Notes under the pieces: generated by a model | Seen by the model: only the letters and a program-made list of their open reading frames with translations | What the model was told of the DNA's origin: nothing | Database searches by the model: none | Translations under genes and position numbers: made by a program | In this document: positions 15,886 through 36,971 of the stretch, one piece after another | Numbering within the stretch: position 1 is the stretch's first letter | How the letters are laid out: every line of letters begins with the position of its first letter | Origin: a virus | Taxonomy: Duplodnaviria; Caudoviricetes | IMG/VR virus record: IMGVR_UViG_3300033463_000011 | Span: 136,234-200,233 of that record | DNA: 64,000 bases | Strand: one strand, 5' to 3'

Positions 15886-17004
15886 ATGAAAAGAAGATTT
15901 ACAAAATATCCTTCAAACTATGTAGGTGCTGCATCTGAAACATCTGGTGCGGCTATGCGTAGAAAGAAAAGAGAAGCTGAGCAAAAAGGCACAGAAGGCG
16001 CTGAACTTTTAGCTACCGATGGAGAATGGGAGCTGTGGACTCCTCATACATTTGAAGCTTCTGTTTATTTAGCAAACAAGGGCGGTAACAAAGCAATTTG
16101 GGATACAGCATACGAAGGTGGTGGATCTCATTACTTCGATATGTATACCGAAAAGGGTCCGCTTTATATATTTATCAACAAAGCAACAGGTGAAAAATAC
16201 CAATCTCACCCCGCTACTAAGTCTTGGTTCTTTGATGCAAAAGATAGAAACTATGGTAGAGACGCACTTGAAGCATTCTGCTGCAAGCATCCAGCATTTG
16301 CAGAATTCTTTGATGTAAAATGCGACGAAGATATCGAAGGTTGCGGAGATATCAAAGCGTCTACCGGAGTAATAGCCTCTAGTTGTGATTACTTTATTGA
16401 TAACGGAGCTGGTTTAGGTACACTCGGTGAAAAATTCACATTAGGTGAACTTAAAACAGAATATTATAGATTATGTGCAGAAGATGACCCTATTTGTGCA
16501 GAATATGGTTCATTTGAAGCGTGGCTTGATGATACACTGGATTCCGGTTTACTTACATGCTATAATGATTATGATACTATTGATGCTTGTGGTCCTGTTG
16601 AATCTTGTGGAGATATCAACGCATGTGGAGATACAAGATATGCAGCAGATATGAGCAATTGTATTAATTGTAGTGACGATGCAGTATATGAACTTGCTTC
16701 GAATCTTGTACATGATTACTTTGATTCATTCATTAAAGACGCAGAAAAGAATAATTTAGGTTTTATAGTAGATGACGATATATTTGTATATGCAGTAGAC
16801 GAAGCAGTAAATACTGGTTCATTTTCAGAGTGTATTAACTTTGTAGTTGATGCAATTAACGCAGACCCCGATGATGATATTGACGGTATTGTAGATGATA
16901 TGGTAGATGAATGTGTAACTACATTATATGATATGTCCGATATTATTAAATTGTTTAAGAAATACGATAAATTCAAAGATATGCCTGATTGGTATTTTGA
17001 TTGA
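15886..17004 (+). CDS. Multi-domain putative head protein with repeated IxA/S/C motifs
   Basis: MKRRF...YVGAAS leader; internal IKAS, VIAS, IDAC, VESC, INAC, INCS; W.TA...Y...GPLY domain. Confidence 0.75.
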   Translation: MKRRFTKYPSNYVGAASETSGAAMRRKKREAEQKGTEGAELLATDGEWELWTPHTFEASVYLANKGGNKAIWDTAYEGGGSHYFDMYTEKGPLYIFINKATGEKYQSHPATKSWFFDAKDRNYGRDALEAFCCKHPAFAEFFDVKCDEDIEGCGDIKASTGVIASSCDYFIDNGAGLGTLGEKFTLGELKTEYYRLCAEDDPICAEYGSFEAWLDDTLDSGLLTCYNDYDTIDACGPVESCGDINACGDTRYAADMSNCINCSDDAVYELASNLVHDYFDSFIKDAEKNNLGFIVDDDIFVYAVDEAVNTGSFSECINFVVDAINADPDDDIDGIVDDMVDECVTTLYDMSDIIKLFKKYDKFKDMPDWYFD

Positions 17005-17178: not shown

Positions 17179-17976
17179 ATGAAAAGATATGTAAGAAATA
17201 AAGTTTACGCAGGAGTCTACATAGACAATTCAGGTAAACTTAAAATTAATTCCACTAAAGATAAAATGCACAGAGATTTGATTTTGTTTAATCAAAACAC
17301 TTCTGGTAAACTTTGGGTTGGCAGCGTACCTATTATATATGGATATCAATATAATCTTAATTGTGACCAAAAGGATTATGTTAAATTTAGAAAATTAATA
17401 AAGCACCCAAATAGCATAGAACATTTAGACGAATTTATCGAGCGGGGTGTACTTCATATGGATCAATTTGTTCCATTAGATGAGTTTGACATCATAATAA
17501 GAATCAAACCTACATCCAGACCATCTATTTTAGATAACATTTTAGTTTGTTTACTAGACCATGTTAGTCATCATACAGTAACACTTGAACTAATAAAGCA
17601 AACATATGAACATGTTAAGTTTGATGCAGATCAGGCAATTAGAGATATGATAGCTGCAGGTTTTGATGAAGACTACGCGTATACACAGGTGGGCGATATG
17701 AATATTTTATTTGAAAATCTTAAAGCTAAAAATGAATTATTCCAGATGAAACGCTTTTTACCTAGAGTTCTAAGAGCAAATTTTTCAAATTACTTAAAGT
17801 TCGAGACTGAACAAGAAAAACAGCTATACATGGACTTACAGGGCAAAAATGTTCTCATATATGATGATTTTCTTACAAGTGGAGCAACATTAAAAGAAGC
17901 ATCACGCTACTTAACAGCAATAAATCCTACAAATACATTAACTTGTTTTGTATTAATTCAACAAAATAACAAATAA
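17179..17976 (+). CDS. Phosphoribosyltransferase (type I PRTase) domain protein
   Basis: VLIYDDFLTSGATL PRPP-binding loop. Confidence 0.8.
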   Translation: MKRYVRNKVYAGVYIDNSGKLKINSTKDKMHRDLILFNQNTSGKLWVGSVPIIYGYQYNLNCDQKDYVKFRKLIKHPNSIEHLDEFIERGVLHMDQFVPLDEFDIIIRIKPTSRPSILDNILVCLLDHVSHHTVTLELIKQTYEHVKFDADQAIRDMIAAGFDEDYAYTQVGDMNILFENLKAKNELFQMKRFLPRVLRANFSNYLKFETEQEKQLYMDLQGKNVLIYDDFLTSGATLKEASRYLTAINPTNTLTCFVLIQQNNK

Positions 17977-18074: not shown

Positions 18075-19568
18075 ATGGCTAAAAAAGCTACAGTAACATC
18101 AGCTATCGAAGAGCCTAAGAATACATCTTCTGTGCTCGGAACATTTACTGGTAAGTGTTGCGATGCAGCTGTGTTCAACAATAACTCAATGAAGCTTAAT
18201 AGGGAGTTATTTGAGAAGTTACTTGATTCTGATGAATACAAGGACGCAATAGAGCATAGATATTATATCGGATTTTTAGGTCACCCAGAAGATCCCGGTT
18301 GCCAAAATTTCAAAGATGCATGTATTGTAATGACATCTATGGAAATAACTTCTGATGATGAAATACTCGGCACATTTGACTTAGTAGATACTCCTGTAGG
18401 TAGGATTGTTAAGTCATTTATCGATGCAGGTGTTGAATGGGGAATTTCAATCAGAGGCGCAGGCGATGTAGATAGTGAAGGTAATGTAGATCCTGATACA
18501 TTCGTATTTAGAGGTTTCGACTTAGTTGCATTTCCTGCTTACGGTGACGCAGTTCCTGAATTCCAGCAAGTTGCAGCTTCATCTAACCTTGATGACCAAG
18601 TTAAGTTTAAGCGAGTTTGTGCTGCAATTGAAAAGAACATTAAAGAAGTTACTAGCCTTAATTCTATTGAAGCTATGCAGGAACAGTTTAATCCTGATTC
18701 AGACCAATATAAGAAGCTTGAAGCAAGGAAAGAAGATATTGGTGTAGGTACTGAAGATGAGTGCCCTGAATGTTCTGATGAAGATAAACAGGAAATACTC
18801 GCTAAGAAACTTCAAGCAGTAACAAATCTTTACATTGAAGAACACAATAAAAATAAAGAACTCGAATCTGCTTTAGCATCAACTCAATTACAATATGATA
18901 GAGAAATACAGAGCATCAAGAGAATAAAAGCAAGTCAAGATAAGTTAATGCAATCCAAGTTGGAAACTATTAAAGCATCAAATCAAAAATTATTAAAATC
19001 TAATCACGGATTAGTGCTCGCTAACAAGCAGTTATCTAACGATTTAGAAACATTAGAAGCGGAAAATTCTCAAATAGCTAAAGAATTAAACGCATCTAAT
19101 AAAAATAACCTTATTTATAAACAGAAGATAGAGAGTTCCTCTACTGATATCCAAACTAAAGATACGCAGATTGCTGAATTGCGTGAAAAGCTTAACAAGA
19201 CTGTTGTTGCAAGTACAAACGCAAGGAAAGAAGCATCAAACCGTGGTGAGCAACTGGAAAGCCTTAAGGAAGAGATATCAGCTTCTAATCAAGAGCTTGA
19301 TGAAATGTTAACACGAATTCAAGCGATGGAAGAAACGATTCATGAATATCAGCAAGCATACGCTAATATTTATGCAAACGCAATAGGAATTCAAGCATCT
19401 GGTTTATCTGTTACTGCATCAACTTCTGTTAGCGATTTGGAAAACTTAATCAAATGCGCAACGAATACATCAAATATCGGAGCAATGCCGTCGTTCAGTG
19501 AAGAAGACGAAGAAGCATTTCTTCCATCCGATGTAACTAACAGTGGAAACGATTTAGCAGTACTTTAA
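18075..19568 (+). CDS. Prohead protease (T4 gp21-like, clan SH) fused to coiled-coil scaffold
   Basis: LGHP, DTPVG, GISIRGAG, FDLVAFPA motifs; long heptad C-terminus; directly upstream of the capsid gene. Confidence 0.88.
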   Translation: MAKKATVTSAIEEPKNTSSVLGTFTGKCCDAAVFNNNSMKLNRELFEKLLDSDEYKDAIEHRYYIGFLGHPEDPGCQNFKDACIVMTSMEITSDDEILGTFDLVDTPVGRIVKSFIDAGVEWGISIRGAGDVDSEGNVDPDTFVFRGFDLVAFPAYGDAVPEFQQVAASSNLDDQVKFKRVCAAIEKNIKEVTSLNSIEAMQEQFNPDSDQYKKLEARKEDIGVGTEDECPECSDEDKQEILAKKLQAVTNLYIEEHNKNKELESALASTQLQYDREIQSIKRIKASQDKLMQSKLETIKASNQKLLKSNHGLVLANKQLSNDLETLEAENSQIAKELNASNKNNLIYKQKIESSSTDIQTKDTQIAELREKLNKTVVASTNARKEASNRGEQLESLKEEISASNQELDEMLTRIQAMEETIHEYQQAYANIYANAIGIQASGLSVTASTSVSDLENLIKCATNTSNIGAMPSFSEEDEEAFLPSDVTNSGNDLAVL

Positions 19569-19602
19569 TTATTTTAAAGATATTAAACATTAGGAGACTA
19601 AC

Positions 19603-21042
19603 ATGGCTATTAAAAAGACAACTCGTAGAGTTACCCCTACTAGCATTACAGCTGCAAGAAGTCTTAATAGACCCGCAAGAATTGGTTATTCCGCACCTCG
19701 CAGCATCAATGCAGGCACATCAATCACATCTGCTTCTCGCAGATCCGCAAGACCTGTAAGCAGAACAGCTTCTTCTGTAGAGCTTACACAGCAGCAGAGA
19801 GTTTTCTGCAATCAGCTCATTGCAAACACACGTAAGCTTGCTCCTGTTATGGCAGCAACAAACACATCAAACATCATGGCTAAGCCTGAGTTCACAGAGC
19901 TCCTTCCTCTCTTCGTACAGAAGTTGCTCGTTCTCGATGTATTTGGTTCAGTAGCAATGAATTCTCGTCAGCAGATCATTCCTTACTTCAAGTTCATCGC
20001 AGAGAACACAAAGGGTGAGACAGCTGCAGGTACAATCCTCTCTTCTGCTTTCGTAAACAGACAGGGAATGGATCCGAACTTCACAGGTCGTGTAATTAAG
20101 AATGAGGCAGTTGCTAACAGCACACTCGTTTATACACCTATCCTTCCTGGTTCAGTTTCTATCTCCGATGGTACTAATGTATACATCGACGATGGTGCTG
20201 GTAACCTCATTAAGAAGTCTGATTCTTCTAGCGCAGGTACAATCAATTATGCTACTGGTGCAATTGGCACACTTGTAGGAACACTTTCTGCTTCTTATGA
20301 GTATGACAACGAGACAGTAGGTCCTGACCAGAATGGTCAGTATGGTGCTAAGATGGCTAAGGGCTATCTCCAGCTCGATGAGATCAACATGGTAGCAGAA
20401 GCACACGAGATCGCTTGCTACTGGTCAATCTATTCTGCATTCGCAGCTCAGCAGGAGTACGGTGCAAACATCGGCGAGATTTCTAAGGAAGCTGCTTTCT
20501 CTGAACTCACAGCAGAAATCAACAGCGCTTGCTTCAACGAACTCGCTCAGGCAGCTACATACAATCCTCAGTTCAACTGGGATGCATCTCTTGCATTCAA
20601 CGGTGCTGTAATGCCTTCTGATTTCCTTAACCTCTTCAAGTTCAAGCTTGACGATGCAGCTAACGCAGTATACCAGGCAACAAACCTCACAAGACCTAAC
20701 AGACTCATTGTTGGTACAAAGGTTGCTTCTCTCATTTCCAGACTTCCTGGTTTCTCTTCTGGTGCACCTGAGGAAACAGTTGGACCTTACAAGCTCGGTA
20801 CACTTGATCAGTATGTTATCTACGTAGATCCTTACTATGATCCGAATACTTGGGTAATGTGCGCTAAGAGCAACGACATTAGACGTAACTCTGCACTTTA
20901 CGGCGAATATATGCCTATGGTAAAGACAGACGATATCGGTCTTGCTAACGCTAGTGTACAATCCGGTTTTGCAACTATGTACGCAACCAAGATCGTCAAT
21001 CCGGCAACAATTATTTCCGGTAAGGTTCTCGGCGCATTCTAA
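19603..21042 (+). CDS. Major capsid protein, T4 gp23-like
   Basis: W S..AAQ, EL.AEIN, G.L....IYVDPY, Y..YMP, GF.T.YA motifs; strong high-expression codon bias. Confidence 0.9.
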   Translation: MAIKKTTRRVTPTSITAARSLNRPARIGYSAPRSINAGTSITSASRRSARPVSRTASSVELTQQQRVFCNQLIANTRKLAPVMAATNTSNIMAKPEFTELLPLFVQKLLVLDVFGSVAMNSRQQIIPYFKFIAENTKGETAAGTILSSAFVNRQGMDPNFTGRVIKNEAVANSTLVYTPILPGSVSISDGTNVYIDDGAGNLIKKSDSSSAGTINYATGAIGTLVGTLSASYEYDNETVGPDQNGQYGAKMAKGYLQLDEINMVAEAHEIACYWSIYSAFAAQQEYGANIGEISKEAAFSELTAEINSACFNELAQAATYNPQFNWDASLAFNGAVMPSDFLNLFKFKLDDAANAVYQATNLTRPNRLIVGTKVASLISRLPGFSSGAPEETVGPYKLGTLDQYVIYVDPYYDPNTWVMCAKSNDIRRNSALYGEYMPMVKTDDIGLANASVQSGFATMYATKIVNPATIISGKVLGAF

Positions 21043-21244: not shown

Positions 21245-23131
21245 ATGAGTACACCCGGACCTAATGTTATTAAGATATGTAAGAAATGTGGTATAGAATA
21301 TCATCCTAAATCCTGTAGGCAACAATGTTGCAACAGACCGATTAAAACACCTTGTGTTGTTTGCGGTAAATTAATGGATCAAATATGTACATTTGCTGCA
21401 CAGAATGAGACTTGCAGTATTGAATGTCAAACTATTTTGATTAAGCAGAAAAGAGAGGCTTCAGCTAAGAAAATAACTAAGAAGTGCAAATGGTGCGGAA
21501 AAGAATTTAGCCCAAATTCTGTTAGAGACGTATATTGTTCTGGACCTCATTATGCTACTTGTGAAGCCTGCGGTAAGCAATTTGAAATAGATGTTAAAAA
21601 AGATATAAATAGAAAAACTTGTTCAAATGAATGCAGATACATAATAGCTCAACAAAATACAGATAGAGAAGCTGTTGTTAATCATATGAAGGAAAACCTT
21701 AAAGCTAAATACGGCGAAGGGGTTGAAAATCCTATGCAAGTTCCTGGAGTTATTGAAAAAATAAAAGAGACAAATAAAAAGAAATATGGAACTGAATGGT
21801 ATACACAAACTCAATCATACCGAGATTCAGTTAAAACAACATGTTTAGAGAAGTACGGCGTTGAACATCATTTATCCGCAGGAGAAGTAATTGCAAAGAG
21901 AGCTGATACAGTTAAGAAAAAATATGGTGTTGATAACGTGTTTAAATGCGATGCGATTAAGAAACAATCTAAACAATCTTTGTTAGCAAAATATGGTGTT
22001 GAGTATCCGAGTCAGTCTCCAGAAATACACAAGAAGCAATATATAAATAGAAAAAATAATATTGCATCTGATGGTAAACTATTTGACAGTAGTTATGAAC
22101 GGCAGTTTTACGATTTTTTGATACAATTAGGATATCAAGATATAATCCAAACACAAGTGCCTATCTCTTTTGAATATAACGGAAAATCTCATGTATTACT
22201 TATAGACTTTAAAGTAGGTGAGCTGCTATTTGAAGTTAAAGGATCGCATTTACTAGACGGTGTATATGATCATAAACAAGTAATCCCTATTGATATCAAG
22301 CTTGATGTGTATAGGAAGAATCATGTTATCATAATAACAGATAAAACTGATAAAGTAGATGATATATTTGGTAGACCTGATAGTTCTAAATCTAATGGAT
22401 TTCGGTATCCAGAAAAATGTCAATATCCGCTTATAGGTATAGACATTGATTTATTTTCAGAACACCCCGAATTTCCATATGCTTCTGATAAGCCTAAATG
22501 TTTCTATAATGTACAAGTAGACGGAAATACAAGTACTTATGACGCCTTCTATGACCCTAAGATTCGATGGAAAATGATTATCAACAGAATAGAATATGTT
22601 GGCGGATTTATAGATAATAAGCAAATATTGACTGCAATGAATGTTACTCGAACAAGTAAGCAACCTTCCTGGTTTTCTACAGAATACGCAGTTAATTTAA
22701 TTCAAAAATATTGTACTTCTAATATAATCGTAGACCCATTCGCAGGTTGGGGAGCAAGATGTGATGCTTCCAGATATTTAGGTAAACAATATATCGGAGT
22801 AGATTTGAATTCAGAATTAGTAGATTGGCATAAATCTCTAGGGCGACCGATTGAATTAGGTGATGCTAAAGAATTTAAATATGATAAAGAATGTTCAGTG
22901 TTTATTTGTCCTCCATATGGTGATAGAGAAATCTATTTTGAAGGGCAAGATACAGAATTATCCGAATGTCAATGGTTAAGTATAGTAATGAAAAATGTAC
23001 CTAATGCAAGCGAATATGTAATGGTATGTAAGCAAGTGGACTCAGGTTGGGAAAAATACATAGTTGAAACGAAAGAAAACAAAAGTCATCTAGGGAAGAA
23101 TATTGAATATGTTTTACTTGTCCGCAAATAA
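21245..23131 (+). CDS. Zn-finger/KYG-repeat PD-(D/E)xK endonuclease-like protein fused to a DNA amino-methyltransferase domain
   Basis: CxxC repeats, KYG repeats, FDSSYE...IDF...EVKG, then VDPFAGWG (motif I) and CPPY (motif IV). Confidence 0.7.
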   Translation: MSTPGPNVIKICKKCGIEYHPKSCRQQCCNRPIKTPCVVCGKLMDQICTFAAQNETCSIECQTILIKQKREASAKKITKKCKWCGKEFSPNSVRDVYCSGPHYATCEACGKQFEIDVKKDINRKTCSNECRYIIAQQNTDREAVVNHMKENLKAKYGEGVENPMQVPGVIEKIKETNKKKYGTEWYTQTQSYRDSVKTTCLEKYGVEHHLSAGEVIAKRADTVKKKYGVDNVFKCDAIKKQSKQSLLAKYGVEYPSQSPEIHKKQYINRKNNIASDGKLFDSSYERQFYDFLIQLGYQDIIQTQVPISFEYNGKSHVLLIDFKVGELLFEVKGSHLLDGVYDHKQVIPIDIKLDVYRKNHVIIITDKTDKVDDIFGRPDSSKSNGFRYPEKCQYPLIGIDIDLFSEHPEFPYASDKPKCFYNVQVDGNTSTYDAFYDPKIRWKMIINRIEYVGGFIDNKQILTAMNVTRTSKQPSWFSTEYAVNLIQKYCTSNIIVDPFAGWGARCDASRYLGKQYIGVDLNSELVDWHKSLGRPIELGDAKEFKYDKECSVFICPPYGDREIYFEGQDTELSECQWLSIVMKNVPNASEYVMVCKQVDSGWEKYIVETKENKSHLGKNIEYVLLVRK

Positions 23132-23275: not shown

Positions 23276-25084
23276 ATGTTATATCATAAGATATGTGAAA
23301 AATGTAATTTACCTTTTGATACTACTAATTATAGAAAACGATTTTGTGATAGAGAGCATTATAGTATATGTAAGGTATGCGGTAGCAATTATTTGCTTAC
23401 TAATGATCAGTTGATTAATCCTAATCAAAAATGTACATGTTCTAAGAAATGTGCTGCACAATTACGTAAGCAGACTAATTTAGACAAATATGGTGCAGAA
23501 AATCCTATGCAAGCAGAATCTGTTAAAGCAAAAGCAATAGACACTAATATGAAGAAATATGGGGTCGCTAATCCTATGCAGTCTGAAGAGATAAGGAGAC
23601 GATGGGAGGATAATAATGAAAAGCGCACAGGATACAGGCATCATTGGGCTAATCCAGAAGTAATTGCTAAAAGCGAATCTACTTGGGAACTTAATTATGG
23701 CGAGAATATTAAACGACCACTTCAATCTGATAAAGTTAAACAACGTGCGATAGCTACATGTCTAGACAAATACAGTGCAGAAAATCCTATGCAGAATCTA
23801 GATATTAAATCTAAAGCGCAGAATACTAATCTTATTCGATATGGAAGTAAGAATGTAATGGCTAATGACGAGATTAGGAAAAGACAACAGAATACTATGT
23901 TAATTCGATATGGTGTTCCGTTTCATTCTCAGACTGATGCACACATATTATCAGTTATGCTGAATCCATCAAGGTTATCGTTCTATCGTGAATTTCAAAG
24001 AGATCCTAAAGCGTTTATCCACAAGTACTTCAAAGAAAAACCTAGTTTAGATGAACTATATGAAATAACTGGTGTAGGTCATGAAGCTGTTACTAATACT
24101 TTAGCTAAGTTTGATTGCAGAGACGAAGTAGCTTTTGTATATTCTACTATGGAAAGAGAAGTTATACACACGCTAAGAAATATAGATTCTAGCATAGTAA
24201 TAGAAACAAATACTCATAAGATTATAACTCCATATGAAATAGACATCTATTTACCTGAATATAAGATAGGCATTGAATGTAATCCGACTTCAACTCATAA
24301 TTCTTCTATAGCTCTGTTTAATATAGATGACAAAAATGAACCTACTCCTAAAGGTTATCATAAAATGAAATCAGATTTAGCTGAGCAGAACGGGATATTT
24401 TTATTTCATATTTTTGGTTATGAGTGGAAGTATAAGCAAGAGATAATTATATCTATGTTGCAAAATCTTATTGGTAAGAATGAGAATAAGATATATGCGA
24501 GAAATACTGTGATTCGAGAAGTAGATAGTGTTACTGCAGTGCAGTTTCTTAATGCTAATCATCGCCAGGGCAGAGTATTTTCTCCGATTAGATTAGGTTT
24601 ATATACTAAAGATACTAACGAATTAGTTTCTTTGATGACTTTCGGCAAGTTAAGGAGGACTATGGGCACTAATAAAGAAGTAGGCGAAAATGTTTGGGAG
24701 TTAACTAGATTCTGCAACAAGATTAATACATCAGTAGTCGGCGGAGCAAGCAAGTTATTTAAGTATTTTGTAGATAATTATCAGCCAGAAGAAATTCGCT
24801 CATTTTCTGATAGAGCTCATACTAGAGGTAATCTTTATTCTACTTTAGGATTTACTGAATTAAGACGAAGTGGAGAAAGTTATGTCTGGATAGATCTAAA
24901 AACAGACAGAGCATTTCACAGAATTCATGCACAGAAGCATAACATAAAGAGATTCTTAAATGATTATGATATAGATTTAAATAAAACAGAATTCCAGATA
25001 ATGGAAGAACATGGATTTGTTTCATTATTTGATAGCGGAACAATAACTTGGCAATGGAAGCCTGATAACCTTTTATGTATATAG
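23276..25084 (+). CDS. Hef-like putative homing endonuclease with C-terminal GNAT-like domain
   Basis: Zn fingers, KYG repeats, EIDIYLP..KIGIECN nuclease core, WELTRFC..VGGASKL..SDR..Y..LGF C-terminal domain. Confidence 0.7.
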   Translation: MLYHKICEKCNLPFDTTNYRKRFCDREHYSICKVCGSNYLLTNDQLINPNQKCTCSKKCAAQLRKQTNLDKYGAENPMQAESVKAKAIDTNMKKYGVANPMQSEEIRRRWEDNNEKRTGYRHHWANPEVIAKSESTWELNYGENIKRPLQSDKVKQRAIATCLDKYSAENPMQNLDIKSKAQNTNLIRYGSKNVMANDEIRKRQQNTMLIRYGVPFHSQTDAHILSVMLNPSRLSFYREFQRDPKAFIHKYFKEKPSLDELYEITGVGHEAVTNTLAKFDCRDEVAFVYSTMEREVIHTLRNIDSSIVIETNTHKIITPYEIDIYLPEYKIGIECNPTSTHNSSIALFNIDDKNEPTPKGYHKMKSDLAEQNGIFLFHIFGYEWKYKQEIIISMLQNLIGKNENKIYARNTVIREVDSVTAVQFLNANHRQGRVFSPIRLGLYTKDTNELVSLMTFGKLRRTMGTNKEVGENVWELTRFCNKINTSVVGGASKLFKYFVDNYQPEEIRSFSDRAHTRGNLYSTLGFTELRRSGESYVWIDLKTDRAFHRIHAQKHNIKRFLNDYDIDLNKTEFQIMEEHGFVSLFDSGTITWQWKPDNLLCI

Positions 25085-35450: not shown

Positions 35451-36971
35451 AAGCCGATTTTGTAAATAATCATATAACATTATAAATATTATTGCTTGAT
35501 TTTTTTATATTTTTAAATTTCTAAATAAATTACTTTATTTTTATTTAGAATTATACTATAATCATAATATCAAATCTACAAGAGAGGAGGTAATGTAATG
35601 GAGTTAGTTACTTGGAAATGTAAACTTAAGAATTTGACTGCTCAAGAATATCAATATCTTCGAGAGATGTGTTATCTTAGCAAGAATGTCTACAATGAAG
35701 CCGTATATAATATTCGTCAGCATTATTTTGCTGAAGGTACATATCTTCGCTACGAAGCTAATTTTGGTCAGATGAAATTTTCTGAAAATTATATCAATCT
35801 AGGATCTAATGTATCTCAAGCTACGATGCGTAAAGCAGATCAATCTTTTAAGTCATTCTTTGGGTTGCTTAAGAAGTCGAAACAAGGAATATATGAAAAC
35901 TGGAAAATTCGGCTACCCCATTATCTGAAGAAAGATCCATTTTATCCTGTTGAGTTTATTCATGCAGGAGAAGCTGATTTATCTAAAGGTAAGTTTAAGA
36001 TTCCAAAATCTAAGTATCTTAGAGATAAATATCCTGGATTGAAATTGTATATAACAATTCCAGAATACATTCGAGACAAGAAGGTACATACGATTTCTAT
36101 TGTTCCTAAATACAATGGAAGATACTTCGAAACAAGAATTGTATTTGAAAAAGAAGATACATCACTTGAATTAGATTCCAAAAATGCACTTGCAGTTGAT
36201 CTAGGTGTAAATAATTTTGCAACTTGTGTGACTTCTAGTGGAAATTCTTTCATAATTGATGGTAAAGAAGTAAAATCAATCAATCAATGGTATAACAAAG
36301 AAAATGCCAGACTTCAATCTGTGAAAGATAAGCAGAAGATTAAAGGCTATACAAAGAAACAATATCTGATATCAGGCAAGCGAGATCGACGGATTCAAGA
36401 TTTCATTTACAGTTCCACGAAGTATATTGTGAAGTATTGTATCGACAATGATATCGGCAATCTGGTAGTTGGTTATAATGATGGATTTCAAGATAAAGTT
36501 AATCTTGGCAAGGTTAATAATCAACAGTTTGTACTGCTACCTTATGGAAAATTCAAGACTCGCCTCGAATATCTTTGCAATTTGTATGGTATTAATTATG
36601 TGGAACAAGAAGAAAGCTACACATCTAAAGCAAGTTTCTGGGATCAAGATGAAATGCCTAAATGGAATCCTTTAAATCCGAAACAAGGAGAATTTTCAGG
36701 TAAGCGGATCAAGCGTGGGCTGTATCAAACAAAATCAGGTAAGTTGCTCAATGCTGATGTTAACGGGGCATTAAATATTCTAAGAAAAAGTAAAGTTGTG
36801 AGTCTTGAGACTCTATACCGTAGGGGCGAAGTCCTAACGCCTACAAGAATAAGGCTTGCCTAAGGAATTAGGTGGAAACTTAAATAGCAAACTTCTCCAT
36901 AAAAAGAATTATATAAAATTCGATATAGATTTTTTATATTTATATATGATTTTATATAAAACTTATAGGAT
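35451..36971 (+). mobile_element. Non-autonomous TnpB-only IS (IS200/IS605 or IS607 family), ~1.5 kb
   Basis: Boundaries inferred from restoring the doc frame (plus or minus 3 nt); contains only tnpB; AT-rich ends. Confidence 0.75.
35598..36863 (+). CDS. tnpB: RNA-guided endonuclease TnpB
   Basis: LAVDLGVNN (RuvC I), EESYTSKAS, RGLY, NADVNGALNILRK (RuvC III). Confidence 0.92.
   Translation: MELVTWKCKLKNLTAQEYQYLREMCYLSKNVYNEAVYNIRQHYFAEGTYLRYEANFGQMKFSENYINLGSNVSQATMRKADQSFKSFFGLLKKSKQGIYENWKIRLPHYLKKDPFYPVEFIHAGEADLSKGKFKIPKSKYLRDKYPGLKLYITIPEYIRDKKVHTISIVPKYNGRYFETRIVFEKEDTSLELDSKNALAVDLGVNNFATCVTSSGNSFIIDGKEVKSINQWYNKENARLQSVKDKQKIKGYTKKQYLISGKRDRRIQDFIYSSTKYIVKYCIDNDIGNLVVGYNDGFQDKVNLGKVNNQQFVLLPYGKFKTRLEYLCNLYGINYVEQEESYTSKASFWDQDEMPKWNPLNPKQGEFSGKRIKRGLYQTKSGKLLNADVNGALNILRKSKVVSLETLYRRGEVLTPTRIRLA

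Follow-up and report, generated by a model that had tools for sequence, protein, structure and literature searches.

The last 64 kb of a 200,233-bp phage record of IMG/VR (IMGVR_UViG_3300033463_000011; this whole 64,000-nucleotide stretch is called the window) carry a gene for a T4-type head maturation protease fused to a scaffolding protein (18075-19568), followed by the gene for a gp23-type major capsid protein. Our analysis suggests, with a probability of roughly 0.8, that this protease and those of its whole clade cut after alanine and before serine, at (V/I/L)-x-A↓S (the arrow marks the predicted scissile bond). According to this reading, the preference at P1, the residue ahead of the bond, has moved from Glu to residues with small side chains, mostly Ala and more rarely Gly, Ser, or Cys, and the hydrophobic P3 and the Ser or Ala at P1' have been retained. 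The studied head proteases of the T4 family (T4, phiKZ, 201phi2-1, and SPN3US) cut after Glu (PMC5694885, PMC9026906). A preliminary description of the region 18075-19870, which spans the entire protease-scaffold gene and runs 89 codons into the capsid gene, had proposed a T4-type protease with assemblin-like specificity. This proposal is supported in silico by the enrichment of the motif in the clade, by Glu-type relatives as a control, by alignment columns that change from Glu to Ala, and by the loss of residues typical of Glu-type enzymes. The motifs on which it was built were all found in the translations, both in the fusion (QQVAASS, IKAS twice, VLAN, LNAS, IESS, VVAS, ISAS, IQAS, VTAS, and the GISIRG of the catalytic Ser) and at the capsid N-terminus (ITAA at residue 15, INAG at 35, ITSA at 41, RTAS at 54, and VMAA at 82), as were the cited cargo leaders (MKRYIKA, MKVYVKS, MKIYAS, and similar).

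Sequence and a structure model assign the product of 18075-19568 as a prohead maturation protease of the T4 gp21 fold (MEROPS S77) joined to a scaffolding protein. An AlphaFold2 (AF2) model of residues 1-190 was searched against the PDB with Foldseek, and the top three matches were chains of 5JBL (T4 gp21), with E values of 6e-7 to 2e-6, template modelling (TM) scores of 0.58/0.66, and a root-mean-square deviation of 2.2 over 140 columns; the identity to T4 gp21 in the structural alignment was 23%. The proteases of human cytomegalovirus (HCMV), Kaposi's sarcoma-associated herpesvirus, pseudorabies virus (PrV), Epstein-Barr virus, herpes simplex virus (HSV), and varicella-zoster virus came next, far behind T4 gp21 (E ~1e-3, 6-13% identity). 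A fold search with the domain model was needed, since a profile of the full-length alignment matched only coiled coils among the PDB sequences (P22 gp26 and similar) and no gp21. The PF03420 (Peptidase_S77) match of the fusion (E 7.5e-5, 22.7 bits) lies under the curated cut-off of 27 bits, and most close homologs carry a precomputed PF03420 match. The capsid protein scored 64.5 bits with PF07068, against a cut-off of 24.4. A protein search of this genome found the protease gene in a single copy.

The protease domain was searched against 1.84 billion representatives, and two groups were found, both consisting of ~500-aa fusions. The near group, to which the window belongs, has a domain identity of at least 45% (79 full-length representatives), and the far group one of 33-44% (53 full-length representatives); clusters were taken at 50% identity. 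The residue alignment took in 80 near, 53 far, and 7 cultured sequences. The catalytic Ser and Asp were invariant in all aligned sequences, and the His was found at a frequency of 0.97 in the near and 1.00 in the far group. Mutation of H85/S140 inactivates gp21 (PMC12991175), and a His-Ser-Asp triad has been described for gp21 and gp245 (PMC5694885). Because the catalytic residues are conserved across the clade, the protease domain appears to be under selection as an enzyme.

The scaffold part of the fusion is dense in the proposed motif. Residues 161-497 contain 8 [VIL]xAS sites, against 0.23 expected from the rest of the phage's proteome (Poisson 2e-10) and 0.65 expected from composition shuffles, 0 of 5000 of which reached 8. 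The Glu motifs [VIL]xE and [SAG]xE were at or below expectation in the same part. In six relatives of 58-84% identity the four-residue sites stay fixed while the flanking coiled coil diverges; the conservation of individual sites was counted in six full-length sequences, namely the window's and five relatives (Table 1).

We then scanned the C-terminal parts of the 79 near and 53 far representatives in an unbiased way, counting the residues that follow [VIL]-x against shuffles. In the near group, A-S came first (299 observed vs 50 expected, 6-fold), followed by A-N, the second most enriched P1-P1' pair, and A-A. In the far group, E-S was observed 339 times against 58 expected (6-fold), which gives the T4 motif [VIL]xE↓S and equals the motif L/I-x-E published for gp21 (PMC12991175, PMC9026906). 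I, V, or L occupies P3 in 73% of all A-S dipeptides of the near group and in 68% of all E-S dipeptides of the far group, with Ile/Val preferred in the former and Leu in the latter. Each near scaffold holds 1-8 [VIL]xAS sites; the far scaffolds mostly hold none (0-2) and carry 7-38 [VIL]xE. A preference for Ser at P1' has also been reported for SPN3US gp245 (PMC10052503). Glu-type fusions also occur in the cultured relatives SP-15, LIS04, and GXN1. The motif density thus tracks the protease clade and not the composition of the coiled coil.

The same change is seen at homologous positions outside the coiled coil. At the end of the protease fold, the near sequences read I/V-A-A-S (I/V 0.94, A 0.96, A at the position of A168 1.00, and S 0.96), and this aligns with [VL]-x-E-S in the far group, where the E has a frequency of 0.96. 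The corresponding residues are I185-T-E187-S188 in T4, V-V-E-S in SP-15, I-V-E-S in phiLo, and I-M-E-G in Syn9, and C-terminal autoprocessing is common to gp21, gp175, gp268, and gp245 (PMC5694885, PMC9026906). At the other end of the fold, the counterparts of the candidate site V7-T-S-A10 are LIE-9 in T4 and LxLIE↓S in the far group.

In the capsid protein, the cut that had been predicted near VMA↓A falls exactly on E65↓A66 of T4 gp23, a protein that loses 65 N-terminal residues (PMC9958956). Column for column, [VI]-[MT]-[AG]-A of the near group corresponds to [IL]-x-E-A of the far group and to L-T-E65↓A66 of T4 gp23, and among the near capsid proteins listed, almost all have [VI]-[MT]-[AG]-A-T-N-T. 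The capsid leader also keeps [IV]TA[AS] and I[NS]AG in relatives; RTAS at residue 54 is the weakest of the listed sites and has no hydrophobic P3 in this phage. Residues 1-84 contain 12 R, 3 K, 0 D, and 1 E, and residues 1-61 are disordered in an AF2 model, which was of moderate to low confidence (predicted local distance difference test, pLDDT, 64) and was used only for this purpose. The near capsid propeptides (n = 56) have 3.5 [VIL]xA[SGANT] per sequence vs 0.04 [VIL]xE sites, with 13% Arg and 0.9% Glu, and 25 of the 56 are without any Glu; for many capsid proteins of the near group, processing by a Glu-specific enzyme would be impossible. All far propeptides (n = 32) contain Glu, with a mean of 2.3 [VIL]xE. 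The single Glu-type candidate of the capsid leader, a T4/phiKZ-type cut at S-V-E60↓L, was considered and rejected, as relatives have Q, N, K, or R in place of this Glu.

The third kind of site is found in short leaders of neighbouring genes. Starts of the form MKIY[ACGS][ASTG] or M[KRP]xY[IV]x[AS][ASTV] were found in 42 of the 276 genes called in the genome (~15%), of which 23 lie within the window, and these leaders (MKRYIKA, MKVYVKS, and MKIYAS type) lack the hydrophobic core of a signal peptide. Among neighbours of the near loci, 1.9% of genes carry Y[VIL]x[AS][SA] vs 0.2% in the control stretch, typically as MKxY[IV]xA[SA]. Among neighbours of the far loci, 10.0% have [VIL]xE[SAG] in the first 14 residues vs 2.2% in the control stretch, with leaders such as MIIKLVES- and MVKKLKES-. 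The three homologous kinds of site (the protease-domain end, the capsid maturation site, and the leaders of neighbours) thus appear to switch from Glu to Ala/Gly in step.

Around the Glu-type relatives (loci L010-L089), ~10% of the head-module neighbours start with M-[IV]-[KR]-[KR]-L-x-E↓S, which resembles the capsid-targeting leader of T4, and large sets of tagged cargo may predate the switch of specificity. A second, longer leader, MKR[RKT]FTKYPSxY[IV]xA↓[SA], occurs on several unrelated small proteins near head genes (15886-17004 in the window, and in L002, L003, L005, and L006). The window protein with this longer leader (372 aa) is Cys-rich and contains CGDIKAS and VIASS internally.

The enzyme itself differs between the two groups at positions that may set specificity. 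R52, R55, Y57, and S141 of T4 gp21 are conserved in T4, Syn9, HTVC008M, phiLo, SP-15, LIS04, and GXN1, and they are the commonest residues of the far group (0.98, 0.74, 0.98, and 0.96, respectively). Their counterparts in the near group are a variable residue, Leu/Met, Ile/Leu, and Val/Ile. S141 adjoins the catalytic Ser, and the window has Ile there. The near group additionally gains an invariant R146 and F153. The loss of two arginines would fit the loss of a carboxylate-binding S1 pocket.

Taken together, these data suggest the following course of head maturation. The fusion would co-assemble with the capsid protein and, once the prohead is closed, the protease would free itself at V-A-A168↓S169. 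The scaffold would then be cut at ~10 [I/V/L]-x-[A/S/C]↓[S/A/N] sites, and the resulting peptides would be small enough to exit. The 84-residue Arg-rich capsid propeptide would be removed and fragmented, with a final cut at V-M-A84↓A85, and the cargo leaders of 5-7 residues (MKIYA↓S, MKxYIKA↓S) would be trimmed. The change at P1 is presumed to have been accompanied by replacement of the counterparts of T4 R52, R55, Y57, and S141 and by a rewriting of all substrates.

Table 1. Features of the protease-scaffold and capsid genes (window coordinates; cleavage sites are predicted)
Feature	Coordinates	Strand	Evidence or conservation
Protease-scaffold fusion gene, 497 aa	18075..19568	+	Open reading frame; phrog_207 head maturation protease, 8e-19
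V7-T-S-A10, candidate N-terminal autoprocessing site	18093..18104	+	[VI]-[TK]-[SA]-[AN] in most close relatives; weak evidence
Protease domain, residues ~17-165, T4 gp21/assemblin fold	18123..18569	+	AF2 model, mean pLDDT 90
Loop N36-N-S-M-K-L41, candidate S1 specificity determinant	18180..18197	+	Glu-type enzymes: R-N-x-R-x-Y (T4 R52, R55, Y57)
Catalytic His70 (GHPED) = T4 gp21 His85	18282..18284	+	Alignment
Catalytic Ser125 in G-I-S125-I-R-G (residues 123-128) = T4 Ser140	18441..18458	+	Alignment
Asp149, third catalytic residue = T4 Asp168	18519..18521	+	Alignment
V166-A-A168↓S169 (in QQVAASS, residues 164-170), release-type site closing the protease fold	18570..18581	+	Alignment
Acidic scaffold, residues 169-497, isoelectric point (pI) 4.7: CPEC-motif linker, coiled coil, conserved hydrophobic C-terminus DLAVL	18579..19565	+	Only coiled-coil PDB matches
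I-K-A↓S, residues 284-287	18924..18935	+	RI[KST]ASQ in 6/6 full-length sequences
I-K-A↓S, residues 299-302	18969..18980	+	[IV]xAS in 5/6 full-length sequences
V-L-A↓N, residues 314-317	19014..19025	+	[VI]xAN in 5/6 full-length sequences
L-N-A↓S, residues 338-341	19086..19097	+	In this phage; A, S swapped or lost in relatives; weakly conserved
I-E-S↓S, residues 352-355	19128..19139	+	KIESSS in 6/6 full-length sequences, KVESSS in one of them
V-V-A↓S, residues 377-380	19203..19214	+	TVVAST invariant
I-S-A↓S, residues 401-404	19275..19286	+	[ILMV]-[ST]-[AS]-S in 6/6 full-length sequences
I-Q-A↓S, residues 439-442	19389..19400	+	3/6 full-length sequences
V-T-A↓S, residues 446-449, 48 residues from C-terminus, maturation-type site	19410..19421	+	VTAST invariant
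I-K-C↓A-T-N-T-S-N-I, residues 459-469, last candidate site, 35 residues from C-terminus	19449..19481	+	Motif conservation
gp23-type major capsid protein gene, 479 aa	19603..21042	+	PF07068 Gp23, E 1.5e-17; tblastn to annotated major capsid proteins
Arg-rich capsid propeptide, residues 1-84, pI 12.0	19603..19854	+	Sites ITA↓A 15-18, INA↓G 35-38, ITS↓A 41-44
V82-M-A84↓A85, predicted capsid maturation cut, mature N-terminus ATNTSNIMAKPEF	19846..19857	+	Alignment to T4 gp23

The scaffold tail LIKC↓ATNTSNIGAMPSF (19449-19496) copies the predicted new N-terminus of the capsid protein, VMA↓ATNTSNIMAKPEF (19846-19893), and the local alignment of the tail with the capsid N-arm gave z values of 3-8. The motif of this copy, [VIL]x[GACS]AxNxxN[IVL], was found in 101 of 119 close homologs vs 6 of 80 diverse members of the clade, and the copy is absent from the far group. 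The capsid-mimicking tail was therefore rejected as a feature of the whole clade and is confined to a close subclade, where it may represent a shared protease docking element or a scaffold tail holding the site that the capsid N-arm takes later. Additionally, the acidic linker contains a conserved Cys-Pro-[EDK]-Cys (DECPECSDEDK; residues 226-232, 18750-18770), which is absent in the relative L005 and could be a metal or disulfide site.

The Ala specificity is probably a derived trait that arose by a switch from Glu to Ala, in which case its likeness to assemblin would be convergent. The preliminary description had left the choice between convergence and shared ancestry open; we regard convergence as the likelier, with the root not proven. 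In quick maximum-likelihood trees of the protease and the capsid protein, rooted on T4-like sequences, the near group formed one clade (support 100), the stem of which was very long (2.84 substitutions per site in the protease tree and 2.1 in the capsid tree), and both trees place it within or beside the far lineages. A claim that the near group is nested within the far group was dropped, because, against the nesting seen in these two trees, the approximately unbiased (AU) test did not reject a single clade of all Glu-type fusions (p 0.72), and the constrained tree even scored higher. The nesting being unproven, the polarity rests on the outgroups. The alternative, which concerns the origin only and not the mechanism, is that the Ala↓Ser specificity was kept from a common ancestor of the assemblins and the phage S77 proteases, and that Glu arose later in the T4, phiKZ, and far lineages. 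In its favour, fusion and code alike are found in herpesviruses (PMC4498786), the AU result allows a Glu-type clade apart from the near group, and a single change suffices on the unrooted tree under either origin, provided that the root is placed on the long near stem. We nevertheless consider this origin unlikely. The near proteases are 33-44% identical to those of the far group vs 23% to T4 gp21, and the two groups have in common the fusion, the gene order, and the capsid N-terminus A-T-N-x-x-N-I; besides the position in the T4-rooted trees, Asp completes the catalytic triad as it does in T4, where herpesviruses have His, and all other sampled lineages, including the much more distant phiKZ group, cut after Glu (PMC5694885, PMC9026906). 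The exceptionally long stems of the near group in both trees point to a burst of head-module co-evolution at the time of the putative switch.

Several points weigh against cleavage after Ala. The cutting of the sites, the position of the scissile bonds, the removal of the propeptide, and the order of events are inferred from sequence, and the role of the switched residues in the S1 pocket is a guess from the alignment. The contrast between the near and far groups is one evolutionary event, so that sites, leaders, and enzyme residues covary coherently but as an unreplicated case. The Pfam S77 score is sub-threshold, which places the Ala-type clade at the edge of the PF03420 model, and the RTAS, LNAS, and IQAS sites are weakly conserved. 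A coiled coil could also favour some hydrophobic-x-small patterns, an explanation that is disfavoured by the shuffles and by the Glu-type sister clade.

This last point bears on the possibility that the protease still cuts after Glu, that the [VIL]xA[SA] motifs are structural (coiled-coil packing or capsid-binding repeats) or otherwise used, and that the Arg-rich arm is kept and binds DNA. Coiled coils do have periodic hydrophobic and small residues, 7 [VIL]xE motifs remain in the scaffold, and Arg-rich N-terminal arms that are retained in the particle exist in other viruses. However, those [VIL]xE motifs do not exceed expectation, the Glu at the protease-domain end is lost in 100% of the clade, the column of T4 E65 holds Ala or Gly, and many capsid propeptides have no Glu at all. 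The residues common to Glu-type enzymes are also gone, and the motif occurs in non-coiled contexts, namely leaders of 5-7 residues and the disordered capsid leader. Retained Glu cleavage is therefore very improbable. It is just as hard to sustain that the sites are real and are cut by a host protease or an unrecognised phage protease, the S77-fold domain having another or a reduced role: staphylococcal phage 80alpha matures its heads with the host protease Prp, and a small P1 with an aliphatic P3 resembles signal-peptidase-type rules, but the catalytic residues are conserved (Ser and Asp throughout, His almost so), the switch of sites coincides with the burst of protease change on the near stem and with changes beside the catalytic Ser, a second prohead protease of the S78, ClpP, or S49 type had no match anywhere in this genome, and the leaders are unlike signal peptides.

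Compared with T4 gp21 (MEROPS S77, 5JBL), the protease of the window shares the fold, the His-Ser-Asp residues by alignment, the hydrophobic P3, and Ser/Ala at P1'. As with the gp21 substrates (gp22, gp23, gp24, and internal proteins), many scaffold cuts are predicted and the capsid propeptide would be removed at a homologous position; a cleavage motif also stands at the C-terminal end of the protease fold, and the short cargo leaders are like the T4 capsid-targeting sequence (CTS) (PMC9958956, PMC9026906). The differences are the predicted P1 (Ala/Gly/Ser/Cys here, Glu in T4), the replacement of T4 R52, R55, Y57, and S141, and the encoding of protease and scaffold by one gene instead of two (21 and 22). 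In addition, the capsid propeptide is strongly basic and the leader is only 5-7 residues long.

The assemblin precursor of herpesviruses (HSV/PrV pUL26, HCMV pUL80a; MEROPS S21) has a homologous fold with the protease N-terminal to the scaffold, and the fusion of the window likewise has a predicted release site where the two domains meet and another site 35-48 residues before the scaffold ends. The predicted (V/I/L)-x-A↓S code agrees with that of PrV, hydrophobic-x-Ala↓Ser/Thr, known from the sites YLQA↓T and VQA↓S (PMC4498786), and the Y-[IV]-K-A↓S leaders resemble R sites even in their Tyr at P4. Asp149 (aligned via T4 gp21 D168) is the third catalytic residue, whereas herpesviruses have a Ser-His-His triad (PMC4498786). 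The scaffold has ~10 candidate sites instead of two, and the core would end up in small fragments like T4 gp22; processing is also predicted for the capsid protein, and CTS-like cargo leaders are present. No nested start of the UL26.5 type was found among in-frame ATG/GTG/TTG codons with a Shine-Dalgarno-like motif in codons 120-330, a simple criterion under which a non-canonical start is possible. The preliminary description had spoken of a herpesvirus-like maturation logic. This is an overstatement, as the fusion also occurs in the Glu-cutting SP-15, LIS04, and GXN1, and as the start, the number of sites, and the third catalytic residue differ. The system is best described as a T4-type maturation system that appears to have acquired the assemblin cleavage code.

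The fusion architecture is thus not tied to the Ala code. Thornevirus SP-15, LIS04, Streptococcus phage GXN1, and the far group are the nearest relatives and share both the architecture, a protease and a coiled coil in one protein of ~500-570 aa, and the gene order, in which a gp23-type capsid gene follows. They differ in having [VIL]xE-type sites (6-15 in SP-15, LIS04, and GXN1, and 7-38 in the far group) with 0-2 [VIL]xAS, in the LxE↓ of their capsid propeptides, and in keeping the R-N-x-R-x-Y loop and G-V-S-S-R-G. The proteases phiKZ gp175, 201phi2-1 gp268, and SPN3US gp245 are diverged S77-type enzymes that trim their own C-terminus and process numerous head proteins; their motif spans three residues, and Ser is favoured at P1' (PMC5694885, PMC10052503), but they cut after Glu (S/A/G-x-E) and have no long coiled-coil scaffold fused.

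The Ala-type clade is large and uncultured, with ~85 clusters at 50% identity and more than 1200 homologs of ~500 aa; no cultured member was found among 50,697 phage records, where every match was below 40% identity. The Glu rule is used to predict processed and head-packaged proteins and would mis-annotate this clade, and the Ala↓Ser rule predicts mature capsid N-termini and packaged cargo straight from sequence. The paired Glu- and Ala-type sister clades amount to a natural swap experiment with a short list of candidate specificity residues, and they illustrate how a set of dozens of substrates can change in concert. If the reading is true, dozens of cargo leaders were rewritten along with the autocleavage site, ~10 sites in the scaffold, and 3-4 in the capsid propeptide. 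A Glu-specific phage enzyme appears able to arrive at the (V/L/I)-x-A↓S code of herpesviruses, and the fold is shared with the herpesvirus proteases, which are drug targets.

As for the cause, Glu-containing loops of CD-NTases (cGAS/DncV-like nucleotidyltransferases) in CBASS (cyclic oligonucleotide-based antiphage signalling system) act as tripwires for T4-type head proteases (PMC12991175). One change of the S1 pocket, in which the R-N-x-R-x-Y loop and the Ser beside the catalytic Ser disappeared, could have moved this entire and highly successful clade of ~200-kb phages from Glu to Ala and forced the rewriting of all substrates, driven perhaps by escape from such Glu-loop host defences; we consider this scenario speculative and rather doubtful. 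If it were true, the switch would be a natural experiment on the co-evolution of a protease with its set of substrates and, at the same time, an adaptation against host defence. If hosts sense head proteases via cleavable loops, a change of specificity matters for the conflict between phage and host.

In the window, baseplate genes lie upstream of the protease-capsid pair, and two homing endonucleases and a neck protein lie downstream. The gene just upstream of the protease (17179-17976) encodes a phosphoribosyltransferase domain (PF00156, 27 bits) with a leader-like start, MKRYVRNKVYAG; given this start, it may be a packaged enzyme. Two large homing-endonuclease-type genes (21245-23131 and 23276-25084; phrog_3339, phrog_12131, phrog_559) follow straight after the capsid gene, and the first of them has an additional methyltransferase-like C-terminal part. 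In SP-15, an endonuclease-carrying intervening sequence sits within the capsid gene. Additionally, an open reading frame of a transposase family (35598-36863; phrog_506, 3.7e-39) was identified within the phage genome.

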